A stretch of 64,000 bases of DNA, from assembly GCA_964016885.1 (NCBI GenBank), contig OZ024749.1:35526001-35590000 (forward strand), read 5' to 3'. Positions 1,663 to 57,829 of this stretch are shown here, one piece after another. The notes under the pieces are model-generated. The model searched no databases. It saw only the letters and a list, made by a program, of their open reading frames with translations, and was not told the DNA's origin. The first letter of the stretch is position 1. Each line of letters starts with the position of its first letter. A program made the position numbers and the translations under genes. Source of the stretch: Eledone cirrhosa. Lineage: Eukaryota.

Positions 1663-4600
1663 TTATTATTATCTTATTATCCTTAATAATGTTATTTATA
1701 TCGCATGTTGTAACTGCATTATTGAGCACAGCTCTGTGTTGTTTTTGGTCTTGTTTATTTTATTGTATTGAAACATCGTCATTTATGTCGAGTTACTGCT
1801 TTTTAATTTCTATATTTCCACATTGATGCACGCATAGGTTTTCGTATTTCTTTTGCCTTAAATTCAAAATTTTTACTCATTTTCTGCAGAATTATACGGT
1901 GTTTATTTATCTCGTTTTTATTGTTTTCTGTGTTCATTGGTGAGTGCTTCGACCCGTTATCCACCTTTATTTTAGGCACATGTTTTCTTATCATAAACGC
2001 TAATAATATATCAACAAACAATGAATTTTTAAATTTTATAAGTGTAACTTACATGCTTCGGTTTTTGTTTTCTTTTCAATTTATTTTGATGTTTGGATTG
2101 GCAGTATCGGTAGAGGGTCGGACACCATGCTTTGCAGCATAGAGTTACGTACGCCCCTTTACGGTCTTAGTTCAAATCCTGCTGAGGTTAACTTTGCCTT
2201 TCGTCCTCACGATAAAATAAAGTACCAGTAATGCACTGAGATAATTGCTGGCCTTGTGCCACGTGTTACCAACGTCACCAAAGGAATCTCTATATATAAT
2301 GAAATTATTGCTTACAGTGCTCAAGTGGAGACAAGCCTCACATAAAATTTAATTTTACTTGGGTTCACTTTGTTCTTGGCTAACATATTCCTTTTCCTTC
2401 TGGACAAGTTTCACTTTTATTTCGACGATGTTAATGGATTACTTCACATCTTGCAAGAAGCCTTGGTATAGGCATTCATGATGTTAATCAGCTAGGGACC
2501 GTTATTATTTCCCTTTCCTTTCATGTCTATTACCATTTCCCAAGATTCTTCAACTCTCCTCACAAAACCTGTAAGTTTGGAGTTTCTCACAAACATAATA
2601 TCGATTTATTTTCTCTACAACAACATCTATAACAATAATAACAACACAACAATAAGAACACCATCAACAACATTAACAGTAACACCAACAATGGAACCAC
2701 CACAAACAACAACAACAACAACACCAACAGCAACCATAACAATAAGAACACCATCAACAACATTAACAGTAACACCAACAGCACCAACACCAGCAATAGA
2801 GCCACTACAAACAACAACAACAATAATACCAACAGCAGCAACTACAATAAGAACATCATTAACAACATTAACAGTAACAGCAACAACAACAGCACCAATA
2901 ATAAAACCACCACAAACAACAACAACAACCACAATAATATCTGAAAAGACAGAAAAACAATATATGTAGTGTGAAAATCACCATAAAATGAATTATGAAT
3001 ATAATTAATAAAACCCTTCACATTCCTATGTCAAAAATATTTAAAACAAACATAAACAACTCTTCAAAAGTTTCCCTACTCTTTACAATACATTAAACAA
3101 TTATTTTCTTCTATTTTTCTTGTTCAGATTTTACTAAAAAAACAACAAACTAAAGGATTTTTCTAAAACCCTTTTGATACCAAACCAACTGAATCTGCTC
3201 TTGGTTCTATCATATAAAACTGCTTATTTTAAACTGTTTATTGTTATCTAAGAACCTTCCATCATCATAATTTAATGTAAGGATCTTTGATAGGTTATGC
3301 TCCAATCACCAACTTAATAATGGTTTCTAGTTCAGGCACAAGGCCAACAATTTTGAGAGGAGGGGGAAGTCAATTATTTTGACTCCAGAACTGGAACATC
3401 ACTTTATTTTATTGACCCTGGAAAGATGAAAGTCACAACTGACCTTGATGGGATTTGAACTCAGAGTGCAGAGTACTGGAATTCCAACTTAATAATGAGA
3501 AAGTTAGTTACATTACTAAATCCTTCCATGTTCTTGATTGTTTTTCAACAGAAATGTGGTGACAAAAAAGGGTTAAGAAGGGTTTAAAGCAAAAAAGAAA
3601 GACTCAAAGACAGGATATTTTCTGAACCAACTTGTTTTATTCAATTGTGGAAGCATACAAAGCAAATATATGAGGGGGGAGATCTACAAATATAGCCACT
3701 CCATATAATTTCTGCTAATGGAGGGCAACTAAAACAAATAAATGCAACTACTTTTCACAACTATATTCATTGCCATCACCAAATATTTTGAAGCTCATCG
3801 TTCATGTTTAATGATTCTCAGCCACAACCAAAATGGCTTTGGAAAAGAAGGTAGTTTTCATATTTTTTCTTTAAACTTTAATAATTCATGTTTTAAATGA
3901 TTTTTCTTTAAACTTTAATAATTCATATTTTAAATCATTTTTCTTTAAACCTTATTAATTCATATTTTAAACCATTTTTCTTTAAACTTTAATAATTCAT
4001 TTTTAAAAATTATTTTTGTCTTTCATTTTTTTCCTTTCTTTCTTGTAAATCTAAAAGGTATTTTAATTGCTTTGTAATGGAAAGATAAACGTTTGTAGAA
4101 GAAGATTAAAAAATAAATGAAATGAGGAGTCAGAGTGAGAGAAATTGTAAATGAAACAGGTGTGGAATAGTAGTTTGGAGTCGTCGATAAGGTTAAAAAG
4201 GTAATTTGTAACAGGTGTGGAGTAGTTTGGAGTTTATAAGGTTAAAAAGATAAATTGTATACATGTTTGTATATTTAAGGCAGCTCCGAATATGGAGAAA
4301 GAGATTGTCAGAAGAATTAATAAAAGAATTATTCCACACAGAACAACAGCTGCATTAGTTGCTTCTCTGGATTATGGCTATAGAAAATGATGTGGGTCGG
4401 AAAGGTTTAGAATAGATTCTGTGAGTGAGTGAATGTTGTAAAACTTAATAAACCCATACTTTTTTGGTAGTTATTTGATAATTTTTATTTTTTGAAGAAA
4501 TATAGTTTTAAAATATTTCCTTAATTTTTTAAAATTTTATTTTTTATCTCTTTTTTTTTGGTTATTGTTATTTTTTTTTTAAATTTAAATTTAGATATTT

Positions 4601-4829
4601 GAATATTTTCAAAGCTACAAGATAAAAATATTCCAAGATTGGATACATAATTCAGAAAAAAATACAACAAAAAAAGAATTTTTAATAAGAAAAGTATGTT
4701 TTCTTTTGTAGAGATATTGTTTTATATATATAAGCAAAGAATAAAATTATTTGACATGAATAAATGGTTATGATGGAATAAAGACCATTTTTTTTTAGAG
4801 GCATCGATATGAAAATTAGGAATGTTACA

Positions 4830-5102
4830 CCTGTGGCATCTGGTAAAAGTAAAGGTAGTATCAAACCACTTACCTATAGCAAGGATAGAATTTAACCATT
4901 CACCTGTAGCAAGGGTGGTATTAAACTCCTCACCTGCAGTAAAGGGGGAATTTAAACCACTCATCCATAGCAAGGGTGGTATTAAACCACTCACCTGTAG
5001 CAAGGGTGGTATTAAACCCCTCACCTATAGCAAGGATAGTATTAAACCACTCGCCTGTAGCAAGGGTGGTATTAAACCCCTCACCTGTAGCAAGGATAGT
5101 AT
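4830..5102. repeat. 30-bp tandem repeat
   Basis: attaaaccactcacctgtagcaagggtggt, about 9 copies. Confidence 0.9.
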
Positions 5103-6312
5103 TGTTCTGATAAAGTTTGGCCCAAAATAAAATAAGAATAAAATCACAACTGACAATAACAATGACAATAGCAACAACAACAATATCAATGACAACAGCA
5201 ACAACCACGACAATAGCAATGACAACAATTTGTTGTTGTTGGACCTCAATGACAAGTATTCCAGTGAAACAGCCTGTAATTGGCTGAGCATTTCATAGAC
5301 ACATGTACTCCTACTGTAGTTCTCAGAGAGATCCAGCATAGCACAGTGTGTGAAATTGAATTACAGACATAACTCATATTTGCCAGCTGACTAGACTAGA
5401 GCAACATAAAATAAAGCATCTCGCTGAAAGACATAAAATGCCACCTGGAATCAAATTCATGACCTTACATTTGGGAGCTGAAAAACCCTAACCATTAAGC
5501 CACATGCCTTCAAACAACAACAGCAAAGCTACACATTCTTCACATACAAAACCATAGCAAGCTACTACATTAAGGGTTGCCTATATGTAACTTATAGTAG
5601 GGTGCATATTCACACTTCACCTTTAAATGTGGTTTATATACAATAAGAAACCATAGTAAACAACTATAAAGGTGTCCTTTTGGTAACTTATATAGGCTAT
5701 AAACCCATATTTATCCTTTACAATAGGGGTAACACAAAATGGCCCTTCCTTTGTACACAACTTTGTACATAACAGAAAACATGGAATAAACCACAATCAT
5801 AAACCCTTAAACATTGTAACAGATACAGGAAGAGATTTTGTGATAAAATATTCTGGATTCTTATAAGAATAAAGACTGCTAGATGTGTCCAGTTTACAAT
5901 AGGGACACTGTATCCTTGTATGTTGTAAGAGGGCCATAAAACATTGCTTCATAAATGACCCCGTGATCAGCATGGGTCCTGCAAGGTTAACCCCTGTTTT
6001 AGCAGGAAAAATGGCTTTGAAATACTTGCTTCTTAATAAAGATACCAGCATTGATTGTTTTAACTCTGTTGTTGTTTATATGGTTTGATGTTCCTTAATG
6101 ACTTTCTATTATCAACTTAGCTCTGTTGCTCTATCTTCCTATTGCCCACATACAGAACAATCCCATACCTGTAAACTGACCACCTTTCTATCATAACTCA
6201 GTTGTGTTGTGAATCACACAACTTTGATGACTACACAACACACAGAGCACAACCCCATAGCTATGTTCTGAGCTTCTTCCAGACTAAACCAATAAAAATA
6301 TAAATAAAGACC

Positions 6313-7110: not shown

Positions 7111-7639
7111 ATTTACAGTAAAGCTAGTTACAATATGGGTGACATGTAGTAAAAGTATAACTGTACATATTTCGAACAGAACTAGGTAGGTTAGAATTAA
7201 ATATAAAGGTTGACTTGTAAATTAATAATTAAACAATGACAGAAGATAGAAAGTACAAAGTTGGTGGTGGTAGTGGTGGCGGGTTAAATAAATCCATATT
7301 TAGCATATGTCACCTGATAAACAAATAACCATAGCAACTAGAGAACAAGCAATCGCAACAGCAGCAGCAACTAATATTATCATAGAAGAAGTGGGAGAAG
7401 ACTTAACAATATCTGTAAGTTCTCATGTCTAGAATCATATGGAACTTACATTTGGTTTCTAACTAAATTATTGGTTTCTTTGAAGTAGAAGAATATTGAA
7501 ATAAAACTTGAAGAAATGAAATAATTATACCAATTCTATGTAGACTGTAAACATAGCAGAAATATTGAAGATTAACAAAGTGAGATAATGGAATTATAAC
7601 CTATCAATAGAACAGAACAAAATAAATATAAGTGATGTT

Positions 7640-7738
<99 letters not shown>

Positions 7739-7854
7739 GTATATGTGTATATATGTGTGTGTGTGTGTGTGTATATACATATAAAATGATGATGATATAT
7801 GTGTGTGTATATATATATATATATGTATTTATATGTGTATATGTATATATTATG

Positions 7855-14275: not shown

Positions 14276-14409
14276 TTACAAATCAAATCGTACATCAGTA
14301 GTTCTGGTTGATTTTAAGGAGCAATGTCCTGAGCTCAAGTTCTTGGCCCGGCAGTGGTTCACATGGCCGTTTAGCAGCTCCACCTTTTCACCGTTTTCTT
14401 GGAACACGT
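14276..14409 (-). CDS. bves: BVES/POPDC-like probable last coding exon
   Basis: Strong acceptor ttcttctgtcttgtgttttag|AC, phase-compatible with exon 6: (D)VFQENGEKVELLNGHVNHCRAKNLSSGHCSLKSTRTTDVRFDL*. A GC-richer island in AT-rich DNA. The tail is not a conserved domain, so certainty is lower. Confidence 0.72.
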
Positions 14410-18733: not shown

Positions 18734-19255
18734 ATGATATTAATAAATGGAAACTATGTTAATTCTTTTTAAATTCATGTAAATACCAACTCTTCTTTCT
18801 TTCTCTTTCTTCTTCCTACACATACATATATATATCCTAATAATTATTTAAATCTACCTAGCGTCTAAAAATAACGTTTTTTTCAGCCCTATACCTCAAC
18901 CTCATTTGCATATTCATCTTAATAATTTGAAATATTTGACTTTTTCTCTCTTTCCCCTCTTTCCCTTTTACTATCCAGGAAAAACTTGAACTGTTAAGAT
19001 CTCCTTCCTGGATATGTTAATATTTATAAAACAAACATTGTATTTTATCTGATGAGAGCGTACCAAAGTTTTGGTACCCTTGAAATATATATAATAGAAT
19101 AAATATGGTTTTATAAATATAGTTTCCATTTATTAATATCATTGATATTATACTCCAGAAAACTTGTCGAGTGCTTTGACTCAGTTATAAATATATATAT
19201 TTGTTGAATTACCAACAAATTAAATATCCCTTTTGCTTTTATATATATATATATA
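18728..19255 (+). mobile_element. Family A HHR element, diverged copy with a short inverted arm
   Basis: 18728-18757 is inverted relative to about 19119-19149. HHR at 19041. Shares the family tail (tactcc...ttgtcgagtgcttt...cagttataaata). (TA)n on both sides. Confidence 0.65.
19041..19101 (+). ncRNA. Type I hammerhead ribozyme motif, family A
   Basis: TATTTTAT-CTGATGA-GAGCGTACCAA agtt TTGGTACCCTT-GAAA-TATATA-TA-ATAGAATA. Intact core, 8-bp stem I, long stem II, self-complementary stem III (ATATATAT), AUA cleavage triplet. Confidence 0.8.
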
Positions 19256-21664: not shown

Positions 21665-21729
<65 letters not shown>

Positions 21730-21855
21730 AAGTTTTATTTAAATTGTTGGGTTACAACGAGTAAATATTTATAACTGATATAAAAGCACTCAACAAGTAT
21801 TTGGAGTATATTTACGATATTAAATAAATGGAAACTATATTTATAAAACCATATT

Positions 21856-21921
21856 TATTTCATTATATATATTTCAGGGATATCATATTAAAAATATGCT
21901 ATGCCTTCTTCAGACAAAATA
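21856..21921 (-). ncRNA. Type I hammerhead ribozyme motif, family A (left arm, sense to the bves pre-mRNA)
   Basis: Exact reverse complement of 22077-22142. Confidence 0.8.
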
Positions 21922-22076
21922 CAATATAAACAGTCTTATAAATAGATAGATTCGACATACCTTTCAACTTCAACTTCCATTTGAAAAGTTGATTTGACTA
22001 CCAAATCAACTTTTCAAATGGAAGTTGAAGTTGAAAGGTATGTCGAATCTATCTATTTATAAGACTGTTTATATTG

Positions 22077-22142
22077 TATTTTGTCTGAAGAAGGCATAGC
22101 ATATTTTTAATATGATATCCCTGAAATATATATAATGAAATA
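22077..22142 (+). ncRNA. Type I hammerhead ribozyme motif, family A (right arm of palindrome)
   Basis: TATTTTGT-CTGAAGA-AGGCATAGCATATT ttt AATATGATATCCCT-GAAA-TATATA-TA-ATGAAATA. Confidence 0.8.
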
Positions 22143-22268
22143 AATATGGTTTTATAAATATAGTTTCCATTTATTTAATATCGTAAATATACTCCAAATA
22201 CTTGTTGAGTGCTTTTATATCAGTTATAAATATTTACTCGTTGTAACCCAACAATTTAAATAAAACTT

Positions 22269-22327
<59 letters not shown>

Positions 22328-22372
22328 CCTAGTGGAAAATATGTGACCTTGTCTGAAATTGAAGCTACTTAC

Positions 22373-22550
22373 CTATGTCTTCGTCATCATTACCGTTCTG
22401 CAGACATGTAGTCCCAGGGATACCAGAAACTGATTCTTGAACTGATTGGTTGATTCCAGCAATGGTCTTCCTGATATCTCGGCCAGAATGGATTGAGGAA
22501 GAAATACTGGGCAGACGTATGTCCATTCTTGAACCTTGTGGTGTCAGCAC
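22373..22550 (-). CDS. bves: BVES/POPDC-like coding exon 6 (C-terminal tail with DIRLPS motif)
   Basis: aatttag|GTG gives VLTPQGSRMDIRLPSISSSIHSGRDIRKTIAG...NDDEDI. Donor G|GTAAGT, phase 1. Confidence 0.9.
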
Positions 22551-31684: not shown

Positions 31685-33680
31685 CCTGCTGTCCACCCTA
31701 TGCTCTGTCCACCTCCATCTTCTGTCCACCTCCATCTTCTGTCCACCCTATACTCTGTCCACCTCCATCTTCTGTCCACCCCTATACTCTGTCCACCTCC
31801 ATATTCTGTCCACCCCTATACTCTGTCCACCTCCAACTTCTGTCCACCTCCATCTTCTGTCCACCTCCAACTTCTGTCCACCCCCATCTTCTGTCCACCT
31901 CAATCTTCTGTCCACCCCTATACTCTGTCCACCTCCATCTTCTGTTCACCTCTATCTTCTGTCCACCTCTATCTTCTGTCCACCCCTATACTCTGTCCAC
32001 CTCCATCTTCTGTCCACCTCCATCTTCTGTCCACCTCCATCTTCTGTCCACCTCCATCTTCTGTCCACCCCTATACTCTGTCCACCTCCATCTTCTGTCC
32101 ACCCCTATACTCTGTCCACCTCCATCTTCTGTCAACCCCCATCTTCTGTCCACCTCCATCTTCTGTCCACCTCTATCTTCTGTCCACCTCCAACTTCTGT
32201 CCACCCCTATCTTCTGTCCACCCCTATACTCTGTCCACCTCCATCTTCTGTCCACCTCCATCTTCTGTCCACCTCCATCTTCTGTCCACCTCCATCTTCT
32301 GTCCACCCCCATCTTCTGTCCACCCCTATCTTCTGTCCACCCCTATACTCTGTCCACCTCCATCTTCTGTCCACCCCTATCTTCTGTCCACCTCCATCTT
32401 CTGTCCACCTCCATCTTCTGTCCACCCCTATACTCTGTCCACCTCCATCTTCTGTCCACCCCTATACTCTGTCCACCTCTATCTTCTGTCCACCTCTATA
32501 CTCTGTCCACCTCCATCTTCTGTCCACCCCTATACTCTGTCCACCTCTATCTTCTGTCCACCTCTATACTCTGTCCACCTCCATCTTCTGTCCACCCTAT
32601 ACTCTGTCCACCTCCATCTTCTGTCCACCCCTATACTCTGTCTACCTCTATCTTCTGTCCACCCCTATACTCTGTCCACCTCCATCTTCTGTTCACCCCT
32701 ATACTCTGTCCACCCTATACTCTGTCCACCTCCATCTTCTGTCCACCTCCAACATCTGTCCACCCCTATACTCTGTCTACCTCTATCTTCTGTCCACCCC
32801 ATACTCTGTCCACCTCTATCTTCTGTCCACCCCTATACTCTGTCCACCCTATACTCTGTCCACCTCCATCTTCTGTCCACCTCCAACATCTGTCCACCCC
32901 TATACTCTGTCCACCTCTATCTTCTGTCCACCTCTATCTTCTGTCCACCCCTATACTCTGTCCACCTCCATCTTCTGTCCACCTCCATCTTCTGTCCACC
33001 CCTATACTCTGTCCACCTCTATCTTCTGTCCACCTCCATCTTCTGTCCACCCCTATACTCTGTCCACCTCCAGCTTCTGTCCACCCCCATCTTCTGTCCA
33101 CCTCCATCTTCTGTCCACCCCTATACTCTGTCCACCTCCATCTTCTGTCCACCCCTATACTCTGTCCACCTCCATCTTCTGTCCACCCCCATCTTCTGTC
33201 CACCTCCATCTTCTGTCCACCTCCATCTTCTGTCCACCTCCAACTTCTGTCCACCTCCATCTTCTGTCCACCTCCAGCTTCTGTCCACCTCCATCTTCTG
33301 TCCACCTCCACCTTCTGTCCACCCCTATACTCTGTTCACTTCCAACTTCTGTCCACCTCTATCTTCTGTTCACCCCTATACTCTGTCCACCTCCAACTTC
33401 TGTCGACCTCCATCTTCTGTCCACCTCCAACTTCTGTCCACCTTCATCTTCTGTCCACCTCCATCTTCTGTCCACCTCCATCTTCTGTCCACCCCTATAC
33501 TCTGTCCACCTCCATCTTCTGTCCACCTCCATCTTCTGTCCACCCCTATGCTCTGTCCACCTCCATCTTCTGTCCACCCCTATACTCTGTCCACCTCTAT
33601 CTTCTGTCCACCTCCATCTTCTGTCCACCCCTATACTCTGTCCACCCCTATACTCTGTCCACCCCACCTTCTGTCCACCC
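31685..33680. repeat. 17-bp minisatellite, about 2 kb, in intron 1
   Basis: Interleaved variants CTGTCCACCTCCATCTT and CTGTCCACCCCTATACT. Confidence 0.95.
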
Positions 33681-33809
33681 CCACCCCCAACCAATGTCTA
33701 CTGTTCACATTCAGGAAAATGGCTGAGTATTCTACAGACATATATGTGTTCACATATATGATTCTTAACCAGAATCAGGGTGACACAATATGATATGTAA
33801 CACTATTTT

Positions 33810-34400
33810 AAACCCGACACACCCAAAGATACAGTATACCAGTTATAAACTAGTGATACATACAGGGATACAGTGTACCTATTGTAAACCTGATACATAC
33901 AGGGATACAGTGTACCTATTGTAAACCTGATACACACAGGGAGACTATATACCTTTGTAAACCTGATACACACAGGGAGACTATATACCTTTGTAAACCT
34001 GATACACACAGGGACACTATATACCTTTGTAAACCAGATACACACAGGTATACAGTGTACCTATTTTAAACCTGATACACACAGGGATACTATGTACCTG
34101 TGTAAACCTGATACATACAGGGATACAGTGTACCTATTGTAAACCTGATACACACAGGGAGACTATATACCTTTGTAAACCTGATACACACAGGAAGACT
34201 ATATACCTTTGTAAACCTGATACACACAGGGACACTATATACCTTTGTAAACCAGATACACACAGGTATACAGTGTACCTATTTTAAACCTGATACACAC
34301 AGGGATATGGTGTACCTATTTTAAACCTGATACACACAGGGATATGGTGTACCTATTGTAAACCATATAGACACAAGATTACAATGTACGTATTTTAAAT
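33810..34400. repeat. 36-bp tandem repeat just inside intron 1
   Basis: gtaaacctgatacacacaggga recurs at 33921, 33957 and onward. Confidence 0.9.
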
Positions 34401-34473
34401 CAGATATACTGTACAATGAAACAAAATAAGATTAAAAGAAAATGAAAATTCAGAGAGAAATGATTCTACTCAC

Positions 34474-39583: not shown

Positions 39584-39651
39584 CAATTCAAATATATATA
39601 TATATATATACAATATTAAATAAATGGAAACTATATTTATAAAACCATATT

Positions 39652-39717
39652 TATTTCATTATATATATTTCAGGGATAACATATTAACAATATGCTATGC
39701 CTTCCTCAGACAAAATA
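39652..39717 (-). ncRNA. Type I hammerhead ribozyme motif, family A
   Basis: Minus strand TATTTTGT-CTGAGGA-AGGCATAGCATATTGTTAATATGTTATCCCT-GAAA-TATATA-TA-ATGAAATA. Confidence 0.78.
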
Positions 39718-40237
39718 CAATAAACAGAGGTTTGTAAGCCTCGCCTGTGTCTGGATATTTTTGAATTTTCTCTCTCTCTTTTTTTCTCTCTCTATATTTT
39801 TTCTCTCCCTATATAACAGCTGGTTTTCCCTCCATATATCTCCCTTACATTAATACTAGAGCTAAATAAATAAATAAATAAATAAATAAATGTATCATTG
39901 ATACGTTATTCAACAGTCGTCCCACTACCTAGCTTTCTATATATGTATCTATCTCTATTTCCTCTCTCTCTCTATATATATATCTCTTTCTGTTTCTTTA
40001 CATGAAGTTCTTCTCTTTATCTATCTTTCCATCTCTCTATTTTGTTCCATGCATTTCTTCTTTTTCTTTTTCTTCGTTTTCTGTCTTTCTTTCCTTTTTT
40101 CTCTCTTTTTCTCTCTTTCTCTCTCTCTTTCTTTCTCTCTGTGTACAATTTTGTCACAACCAAATCAACCTTCTCAAATGCAGGTAGATGTTGTTACGGT
40201 ATGTCGAATCTATTTATCTATAAAACTGTTTATATTG

Positions 40238-40301
40238 TATTTTGTCTGAGGAAGGCATAGCATATTGTTAATGTTATCCCTGAAATATATATAATGAAAT
40301 A
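40238..40301 (+). ncRNA. Type I hammerhead ribozyme motif, family A
   Basis: TATTTTGT-CTGAGGA-AGGCATAGCATATTGTTAATGTTATCCCT-GAAA-TATATA-TA-ATGAAATA. Confidence 0.78.
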
Positions 40302-40532
40302 AATATGGTTTTATAAATATAGTTTCCATTTATTTAATATTGTAAATATACTCCAAATATTTGTCGAGTGCTTTTATATCAGTTATAAATATTTACTAGT
40401 TGTAACACAACAATTTAAATATAACTTTCCATATATATATATATGTGCAATTCAAAACCCTTTTCTTCAACTTATGTTAAAGAAACTCAATATTCTACAC
40501 GCACACATACATATATACACACATGCACATAG

Positions 40533-40571
<39 letters not shown>

Positions 40572-40642
40572 GAATGGAAAACAAAAAAAATCAGTGATAT
40601 ATATATATACATATATATATACATGCAAATATAAATAAATAA

Positions 40643-40674
<32 letters not shown>

Positions 40675-40754
40675 GTATATAAATGTATATGTATATGAAT
40701 ATATATATCATCATCATCATCATTTTACGTCCGCTTTTCCCTGCTTGCAAGGGT

Positions 40755-42522
<1,768 letters not shown>

Positions 42523-42752
42523 TCTATTATATACAAAAGTTGTTATATACACATATATATTTAGATGTAAGTTCAAATTACAACCATGTAATTTCAGTAA
42601 AAACATACATTACCTCTCATTGAAACCGGTTGATAATATATTTTTTAGTGAGGCTAAAACATGTGTTAGTAAAATACATGATCCTAAGTTTAACATCTCA
42701 ATATACCCTAACAAGCTGTTCTGTTCCTACTAATTAAATACACACACATGCA

Positions 42753-56150: not shown

Positions 56151-57616
56151 AGTATGAAATTTCAATGACTTGTTGAACTTGCTGATGGATGAGTAACAAT
56201 AATTAATTTTCTCATTATACGCATTTATTATCTTATTTCTAACGACAGATACTGATTAGGATTTTAAACTCATATTTAAAATAATCAAGAATTTGAAGGG
56301 ATTTAGTCAAATACCTAATTTTCTTATTATAAAGCTGGTCTTTGAAACATAACAAGGGTTCTTAAATAAAATGATGGTGGAAGATTTTTAGATAGATATA
56401 AAACACTTTAATCCTTTAGTCTTTAAACCAGCCATATCCGGCCAGAATTCTCTCACCTCTTTCTGTTCAAACCGGCCATAACTGGCCACTTATGCTTATG
56501 TTAAAGTATTGTTCTCAAAGTGAATAATATCGAAATCTCACAGATTCAATATTATGTAAGATAATTATGTGAGGTGAAGCCTTTACTGTGAAAATATAAT
56601 GGTATATATAGAGTAATGTAAATGCATAAGGGTTAAAATAAATAAAAAGTACTGAGTTGTCAGAGGCTGAGTGATTTCAGGTGGTTTAGTAATAGTTTTT
56701 GTGTTATAGGAGATAGGATGATTCCAAGCAATTCAGTAAGAAAAAGGCTAATATTTGATTCCTTTGTAATTTTAAAATGTCAACTACAAACCATGTGATC
56801 ATGTGATGCCATAAATTGTCACAACTTCTCACTTTCCTCCATACACTTCTATATTTATATTTATGAAAGGAATCACAAACATACATACACATGAACACAC
56901 ACCCATACACATATATAAAAGTATGCATATATGTATTTATGAAAACGTGTGTGTATATATATATATATATGTTTGCATTTAGAAGTGTATGTATATATAT
57001 GTGTTTGTGTGTGTAGGTATGCATAAAGTACTAAGTGTACATATGTATGTAATTATATATATCAACAAAGAAATAGAAGACATATTTACCAAAATATTCT
57101 AAGTCTAAAAGCATCGATGATTATACAAAACAAAAGAAAAAGTAAAGAAATAAAATGAAGTAAAAAAAGAAAAACGTTTCCATAGAAATAGTTTAGTCTC
57201 CATGGAGATAAAATTCCAAGATTTATCTTTCCAATTTCTGATCATGTTGTATTGGCTTCCTTTTTAATTATATCATGAAATAACATCATAATGTCTAAAT
57301 CAAAATCTAGAAGCTTCCATTAGTCTGAAGTAAATTAAGGAAGAAATGGACATTTTTGCAAGTTTTGATGGCAATTTTGGATTACTAGAGTACCCGAGTA
57401 TATTTCTTAAACCTTTCATTATCCTATATTTCTAAAAAAAGACACTGCCAATATTTTTCAAATAATTTTGAATAAAGTCAGTGGCGTATTGCTGAGTTCA
57501 TTCCACTATACATATACATACACATACACACACATACACACATACATACATATAAACAAATATATATATATATATACGATATTAACAAATGGAAACTATA
57601 TTTATAAAACCATATT

Positions 57617-57681
57617 TATTTCATTATACATATTTCAAGGATACCAAGTCAAACTATGGTATGCCTTCATCAGACAAAATA
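57617..57681 (-). ncRNA. Type I hammerhead ribozyme motif, family A (left arm)
   Basis: Reverse complement of 57830-57894. Confidence 0.78.
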
Positions 57682-57829
57682 CAATATATACCAGTTTTAT
57701 AAATAAACATTGACGTACCCTTTCAAAATGCAACCGTTACTTTTGGAAAACATCAGGATGTCTTCCAAAAGTAACGGTTGCATTTTGAAAGGGTACGTCA
57801 ATGTTTATTTATAAAACTGGTATATATTG

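Follow-up and report, generated by a model that had tools for sequence, protein, structure and literature searches.

A perfect hammerhead-bearing palindrome in an intron of a Popeye-domain gene is probably a head-to-head insertion of Penelope-like terminal repeats

The perfect palindrome in intron 6 of a Popeye-domain gene, which lies in the 64,000-nucleotide stretch of Eledone cirrhosa DNA analysed here as a whole (the window), is very probably composed of two 5'-truncated terminal repeats of a Penelope-like element (PLE) placed head to head in a (TA)n microsatellite, probably by one recent insertion. It forms a 323-bp inverted repeat with zero mismatches, in which positions 21674-21996 pair with 22002-22324 around a 5-nt loop (Table 1), and the non-TA part of each arm is 270 bp long. 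This confirms the mismatch-free 270-bp arms described in an earlier note on this DNA and shows that the pairing is perfect over 323 bp. The left arm is 5'-truncated and stops 5 nt short of the start of the right arm, and the loop ACTAC begins at the A of the initiator-like TCACT of the element, which is the junction hot spot of the family. The earlier note also traced the symmetry outwards to CTTT/AAAG (21665-22327). Three bases beyond the tracts are indeed mirrored, but the extension requires a 6-nt bulge because the TA tracts are unequal (59 vs 53 nt). A 3-mer is shared by two random TA-tract ends in 8.7% of cases (126 ends within the window), so that the mirrored flank bases are not evidence of anything. 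As a sign of conversion, flank symmetry was rejected for being within this chance level.

Table 1. Coordinates of the palindrome, its hammerhead motifs and the neighbouring exons of the host gene, as positions in the window.
Feature	Position	Strand	Remark
Left (TA)n tract	21668..21726	none	59 nt, target microsatellite
Left arm	21727..21996	-	inverted pLTR and 81-nt tail of Penelope-like element
Type I minimal hammerhead	21921-21856	-	sense in host transcript; predicted cut after 21864
Loop ACTAC	21997..22001	+	equals the first 5 nt of the right arm
Right arm, pLTR part	22002..22191	+	end (about 22185-22191) equals the short 'S' terminus of the family
Type I minimal hammerhead	22077-22142	+	predicted cut after 22134
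Tail of right arm	22192..22271	+	end equals the long 'T' terminus of the family; mirrored at 21727-21806
Right (TA)n tract	22272..22324	none	53 nt
Coding exon 6, POPDC3-like host gene	22373..22550	-	donor GT begins at 22372
Coding exon 7, host gene	14279..14409	-	closes intron 6 (22372-14410)

Comparison of the arm with its own genome resulted in 1,703 candidates, and the best 40 of these 1,703 match at 99-100%. The arm corresponds to the terminal repeat, i.e., the pLTR plus the 81-nt tail, of a young Penelope-like element. In the locus L031, direct copies of the arm at 3588-3858 and 7512-7782, which are 3,924 bp apart, flank an open reading frame (3938-6136) encoding a reverse transcriptase (RT)/endonuclease-type protein of 733 aa, and an inverted truncated 3' piece is located upstream of the full unit. 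The ORF contains the motifs RWR, DKT, YRDD and CxCx5C, a CxxC before E and a CxH after N; CCHH is absent. It has 368 homologues, and YRDD and the RT motifs are conserved across 15 of them. For the L031 ORF itself, Pfam and the PDB sequence search gave 0 matches each. RVT_1 (Pfam) was matched by one of the 15 homologues with an E of 9e-6, which is below Pfam's cut-off, and the L031 ORF is similar to a second RT ORF in L034 (E 2e-8). A GIY-YIG-like pattern (IIY...YVG, R, E, N) was recognized by eye, with a weak Pfam GIY-YIG match (E 0.012) in one of the 15 homologues. These motifs match the description of the Hydra clade of Penelope-like elements, to which the ORF is provisionally assigned by motif description, RWR replacing RWK (PMC8557442). 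The Hydra clade also targets (TA)n (PMC8557442), and the family copies are flanked by TA, i.e., the insertions abut (TA)n. Moreover, a short asparagine-rich insert at residues about 470-505 of the L031 ORF is missing from most homologues and shared with two close ones; it resembles the N-rich inserts of rotifer Penelope ORFs (PMC3846280).

The 3' part of the ribozyme occurs in 6,426 exact copies in the genome. Head-to-head junctions at the junction point of the window were found 174 times genome-wide, and the same count at four control positions gave 3, 0, 12 and 9, a ratio that is rough because the controls differ in length and polymorphism. Among the first 100 ribozyme matches, the adjacent pairs within 5 kb or less comprise 29 outward, 6 same-strand (4 forward, 2 reverse) and 1 inward, and by exact pattern 34 of the 64 clusters consist of a single copy. 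Insertions end at a fixed short site, S (2,213 matches), or at a tailed site, T (839 matches), the T-end pattern being more subfamily-specific than the S-end pattern. Among the first 50 of the 174 junction loci, 44 combine S with T, five T with another end and one S with S, and none has T at both ends. By coordinates, an outward S end lies within 10 kb of 32 of 46 T ends; T-T pairs were absent among 100 T ends and S-S pairs among 100 S ends. The arms of the first 50 junction loci reach at most 2 nt past the initiator A, with a pattern that allows a 14-nt loop, and longer spacers between arms also occur, e.g., in L014. An initiator-like TCACT was also noted in rotifer Penelope pLTRs (PMC3846280). 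Within 180 nt, the two arms show no difference in 21 and at most one in 31 of the 50 loci. The perfect identity of the arms had been read as implying a recent insertion, arm-to-arm conversion or an artefact; since identical arms are ordinary in this family, no artefact is needed to explain them. On average, the first 50 junction loci carry about 11 differences from the window, and three of them show 21-51 differences owing to indels.

The window itself harbors further traces of the family. At 57555-58021 lies an older palindrome (84-87% to the arm) with a short and a tailed arm and a 14-nt spacer, and at 39603-40431 an outward pair whose arms are separated by about 430 bp of 3' UTR. The family copy at 40161-40431 is directly followed by about 1.9 kb of degenerate (AT)n (40597-42533). 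A solo diverged copy (78%) at 19021-19226, in intron 6, has an intact hammerhead core and a different stem II.

For the origin of the palindrome we propose that the protein of the element would cut both strands of (TA)n, that each of the two 3' ends would start cDNA synthesis close to the 5' end of one shared RNA, and that both cDNAs would extend to the transcription start before being joined and filled in. By this route, the arms would share every variant and the ribozymes would point outward. Usually, one end would be primed at S and the other at T; for the copy in the window, T would have been used by both ends, or a short arm would later have been converted to match the long arm. From the initiator-like motif and the pile-up of junctions we infer that transcription of the element may start at the junction motif. 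In vitro, the protein of another Penelope element was shown to cleave AT-rich DNA on both strands, to extend both, and to start at two sites, which define the tail (PMC11167929).

A 40-nt motif is duplicated in L031 (3760-3915), with one copy directly after the S end and the other after the T end, and the two copies are candidate protein-binding sites setting the two start points. In a coordinated twin priming, a dimer of the Penelope protein might bind two tandem motifs on one RNA and prime one target strand at S and the other at T, both cDNAs reaching the transcription start and being joined. We put this forward as a tentative proposal that is plausible, if somewhat short of probable. If true, it would account at once for the inverted pLTR, the tail on one side and the identical arms; every insertion would be born with its ribozyme self-masked, and the two-tailed copy in the window would represent a rare slip.

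Alternatively, with the same Penelope-like origin, the second arm may have arisen by fold-back of the first cDNA or its self-primed copying, or by later arm-to-arm conversion, and run-through to the TA tract would have produced two tails. Self-priming was proposed for head-to-head palindromes in rotifers (PMC3846280), and self-priming or conversion would cover the identical arms, the two tails and the three mirrored flank bases at once. However, the junction offers no stem for priming, and the flank mirroring is within chance (8.7%) and missing at L058. The family includes junctions without any loop between two full-length arms (L045, L071) and junctions with a 2-nt overlap (GGTACC), and judged from these sequences the joining of two ends appears to fit better than fold-back. 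Fold-back or conversion is in our view rather unlikely. A cap-derived G before the junction A was also considered: a G is present in 18 of 23 arms, yet the opposing arm could be cut at 7 points, 4 of which likewise leave a terminal G, and this candidate is therefore left unsupported.

The copy in the window carries a tail on both arms, a form found in none of the first 50 junction loci (0/50). Three other two-tailed cases (L006, L058, L060) were identified. The whole-palindrome search gave two other short ones among 40 scored, and L006, which has a 685-bp spacer, came from 48 rows (two duplicates dropped), a sample enriched for such cases. L060 (G000:C1:87793782-87797308) additionally shows small nested hairpin duplications at its centre and at one end. 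Given that two tails are rare, that the arms are 100% identical and that no contig bridges the element, the two-tailed and fully symmetric form might be an artefact of assembly or polishing, with an ordinary one-tailed insertion underneath. No bridging read was seen either, and the contigs of runs X1-X3 break at both TA tracts. However, the flank contigs of X1-X3 agree with the window as far as the tracts, with 0-1 differences, the two flanks are not mirror images of each other and the host gene continues correctly across them, the TA tracts are unequal in length, and L058 and L006 are also two-tailed, with one arm mismatch each. An artefact is very unlikely on these grounds. In run X4 (organism B), a contig over exon 6 diverges from the window after 22336 and the element is almost uncovered; the RAD-seq runs X6 and X8 gave no coverage of the unique flanks. 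An empty insertion site was not seen in the reads, including those of X4, where a coverage hole proves nothing.

The host gene encodes a Popeye-domain protein on the minus strand, with seven coding exons by tblastn, and the exon beside the palindrome is 92% identical to Popeye-domain protein 3 of octopods. The spacing given earlier is right: AAAG lies 45 nt from exon 6, and the non-TA arm is about 100 nt away from it. In run X5, which is not recorded as RNA, two contigs end at the edges of exon 6 and then run on, like spliced cDNA. Intron 1 of the gene contains a 17-bp tandem array of about 118 copies (31689-33683), which is followed by a 36-37-bp array (33803-34406).

Each arm contains the CUGAnGA, GAAA and UH core and the stems I-III of a type I minimal hammerhead. 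On the plus strand, stem I is formed by 22077-22084 with 22135-22142, the core CUGAAGA (22085-22091) is followed by stem II (22092-22122) and GAAA (22123-22126), and the palindromic stem III AUAUAUAU lies at 22126-22133; stem III has 2 bp in each arm, with a palindromic loop. Rfam hammerhead models gave 0 matches at gathering thresholds within the window, and the fold of the isolated motif is no more stable than those of shuffled sequences (z 0.14). The stems covary among 20 relatives, with 11 of 19 pairs changed on both sides and 95.5% of cells paired, which is above all shuffles (0/500). The 20 rows were chosen from 48 variants collected in the fetched loci by core pattern, so that conservation of the core, though not of the stems, is by construction. 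A stem III variant, AUAUGUAU, present in 4 of 20 rows (alignment A1 column 62), is self-complementary via two G-U pairs, and this self-complementarity matches what the dimer model expects. For the monomer, the active fold has a predicted energy of -3.4 kcal/mol vs -8.4 kcal/mol for the best fold, which corresponds to a predicted probability of about 7e-6. For single motifs of this hammerhead class no cleavage was reported and for dimers low cleavage (PMC4209133), and cleavage was absent unless the protein of the element was supplied (PMC11167929). The hammerhead likely serves the element's own RNA, with a second copy or the element's protein needed for activity.

The earlier note suggested that the ribozyme masks itself, and its description of the palindrome and the ribozyme geometry was right; the Penelope-like element behind the arms was missed. 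Its statement that the hammerheads point outward, so that on either strand the antisense copy is transcribed first, is borne out by the coordinates. The ribozyme is indeed predicted to be in duplex as it emerges, with a mirror pairing of 0.999 also for a transcript ending just after the ribozyme, and the hairpin in the host transcript is predicted at -487 kcal/mol. In its complete form, the suggestion holds that the hammerhead is active and masked by the antisense arm, that selection keeps masked intron insertions and that editing or unwinding switches on cleavage after exon 6. Next to this predicted geometry and thermodynamics, the covarying stems indicate selection on the ribozyme within the family, the single solo copy of intron 6 is antisense to the host, and tandem retrozymes were reported to be depleted in Xenopus introns (bioRxiv 10.64898/2026.07.22.740005).

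However, the outward geometry is the default insertion product of the family (29 outward vs 1 inward among the first 100 ribozyme matches); masking, which follows from the shape of the insertion, would be a by-product, and the view that it is anything special here or the reason why the insertion is tolerated is unsupported. A single solo copy is no test, and more than half of the clusters among these matches (the 34 of 64 above) are single by exact pattern. As to unmasking by editing, a crude model speaks against it: with 30% of adenosines edited, all five core adenosines, which we take to be essential hammerhead positions, stay intact in 17% of molecules, so that editing probably hits them before the duplex opens. 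With A-to-G changes as a proxy for editing, which overstates stability, the duplex stayed closed. A-to-G differences within the arms cannot be interpreted as editing, since reads from thousands of copies map to them. Moreover, the host transcript offers no second sense motif as a dimer partner, which would leave the hammerhead nearly inactive anyway. Since monomers of this class were reported not to cleave (PMC4209133) or to depend on the protein (PMC11167929), and each host transcript carries one sense copy, masking is probably redundant. An active hammerhead kept by selection because it is masked is highly improbable.

For the locus itself this means little, as it is one among at least 174 similar short hairpins and a host function is unneeded. 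Cephalopods are a group with heavy RNA editing, and the family provides numerous near-perfect hairpins in introns, which are likely substrates of ADAR or of small-RNA pathways. A young and abundant family also offers countable footprints, i.e., the S/T pairs, the junction hot spot and the duplicated motif, which make twin priming testable. How inverted pLTRs and one-sided tails arise was described as an open question in previous reports (PMC8557442; PMC11167929). Head-to-head pLTR palindromes, one-sided tails, (TA)n targeting and opposite-strand hammerhead pairs are already in print. A literature search, covering mainly non-subscription main texts, found no paper that treats the strict pairing of S with T or masking within host introns, and nothing on point for masking of intronic hammerheads, Penelope twin priming or cephalopod hairpin editing. 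For Octopus vulgaris, 31 recently active Penelope-like families were reported, without such detail in the accessible text (PMC13282606), and the supplementary Hydra consensus sequences belonging to PMC8557442 may include the family of the window.

Compared to known systems, the element resembles most features described for the Hydra-clade PLEs with a C-terminal endonuclease (EN+): a single ORF of about 700 aa with RW-K/R, DKT and a CxCx5C linker, CxxC and CxH around E and N without CCHH, a pLTR hammerhead, insertion into (TA)n, an inverted 5'-truncated copy at the 5' end and a tail that is usually one-ended (PMC8557442). It differs from this description in the length of the unit (3.9 kb vs generally under 3 kb) and of the tail (81 nt vs 30-40), in having RWR instead of RWK, and in the tail on both arms at the locus in the window (PMC8557442). 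As in the pLTRs of Adineta vaga Penelope, the repeats are head-to-head inverted with junction palindromes, an optional tail on one pLTR and TCACT; in A. vaga, however, copy numbers are low and target-site duplications are present (PMC3846280), whereas thousands of copies lie in (TA)n here, where such duplications are unreadable. The hammerheads share with the minimal type I hammerheads of metazoan PLEs the short palindromic stem III that needs a dimer and the long stem II, and differ from them by a longer stem I of 8 bp with two G-U pairs (PMC4209133). For Schistosoma, opposite-strand hammerhead pairs 100-700 bp apart were already reported, and masking in host introns is not discussed in the accessible text of the same study (PMC4209133). 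PAc (Poseidon) of Anolis, studied in vitro, likewise has an AT-rich target, two tail-defining start points and a pLTR hammerhead; it belongs to a different clade and both strands used both start sites alike in vitro (PMC11167929), whereas the pairing of S with T is almost strict in the genomic copies analysed here. Finally, non-LTR retrozymes are also short and non-coding, derive from PLEs and carry type I hammerheads, but they form head-to-tail tandem arrays that can dimerize in cis (bioRxiv 10.64898/2026.07.22.740005), whereas the arrangement here is head to head with one sense motif per strand. Identity with a non-LTR retrozyme was rejected, the pair being head to head and outward pairs outnumbering same-strand pairs by 29 to 6 among the first 100 ribozyme matches.
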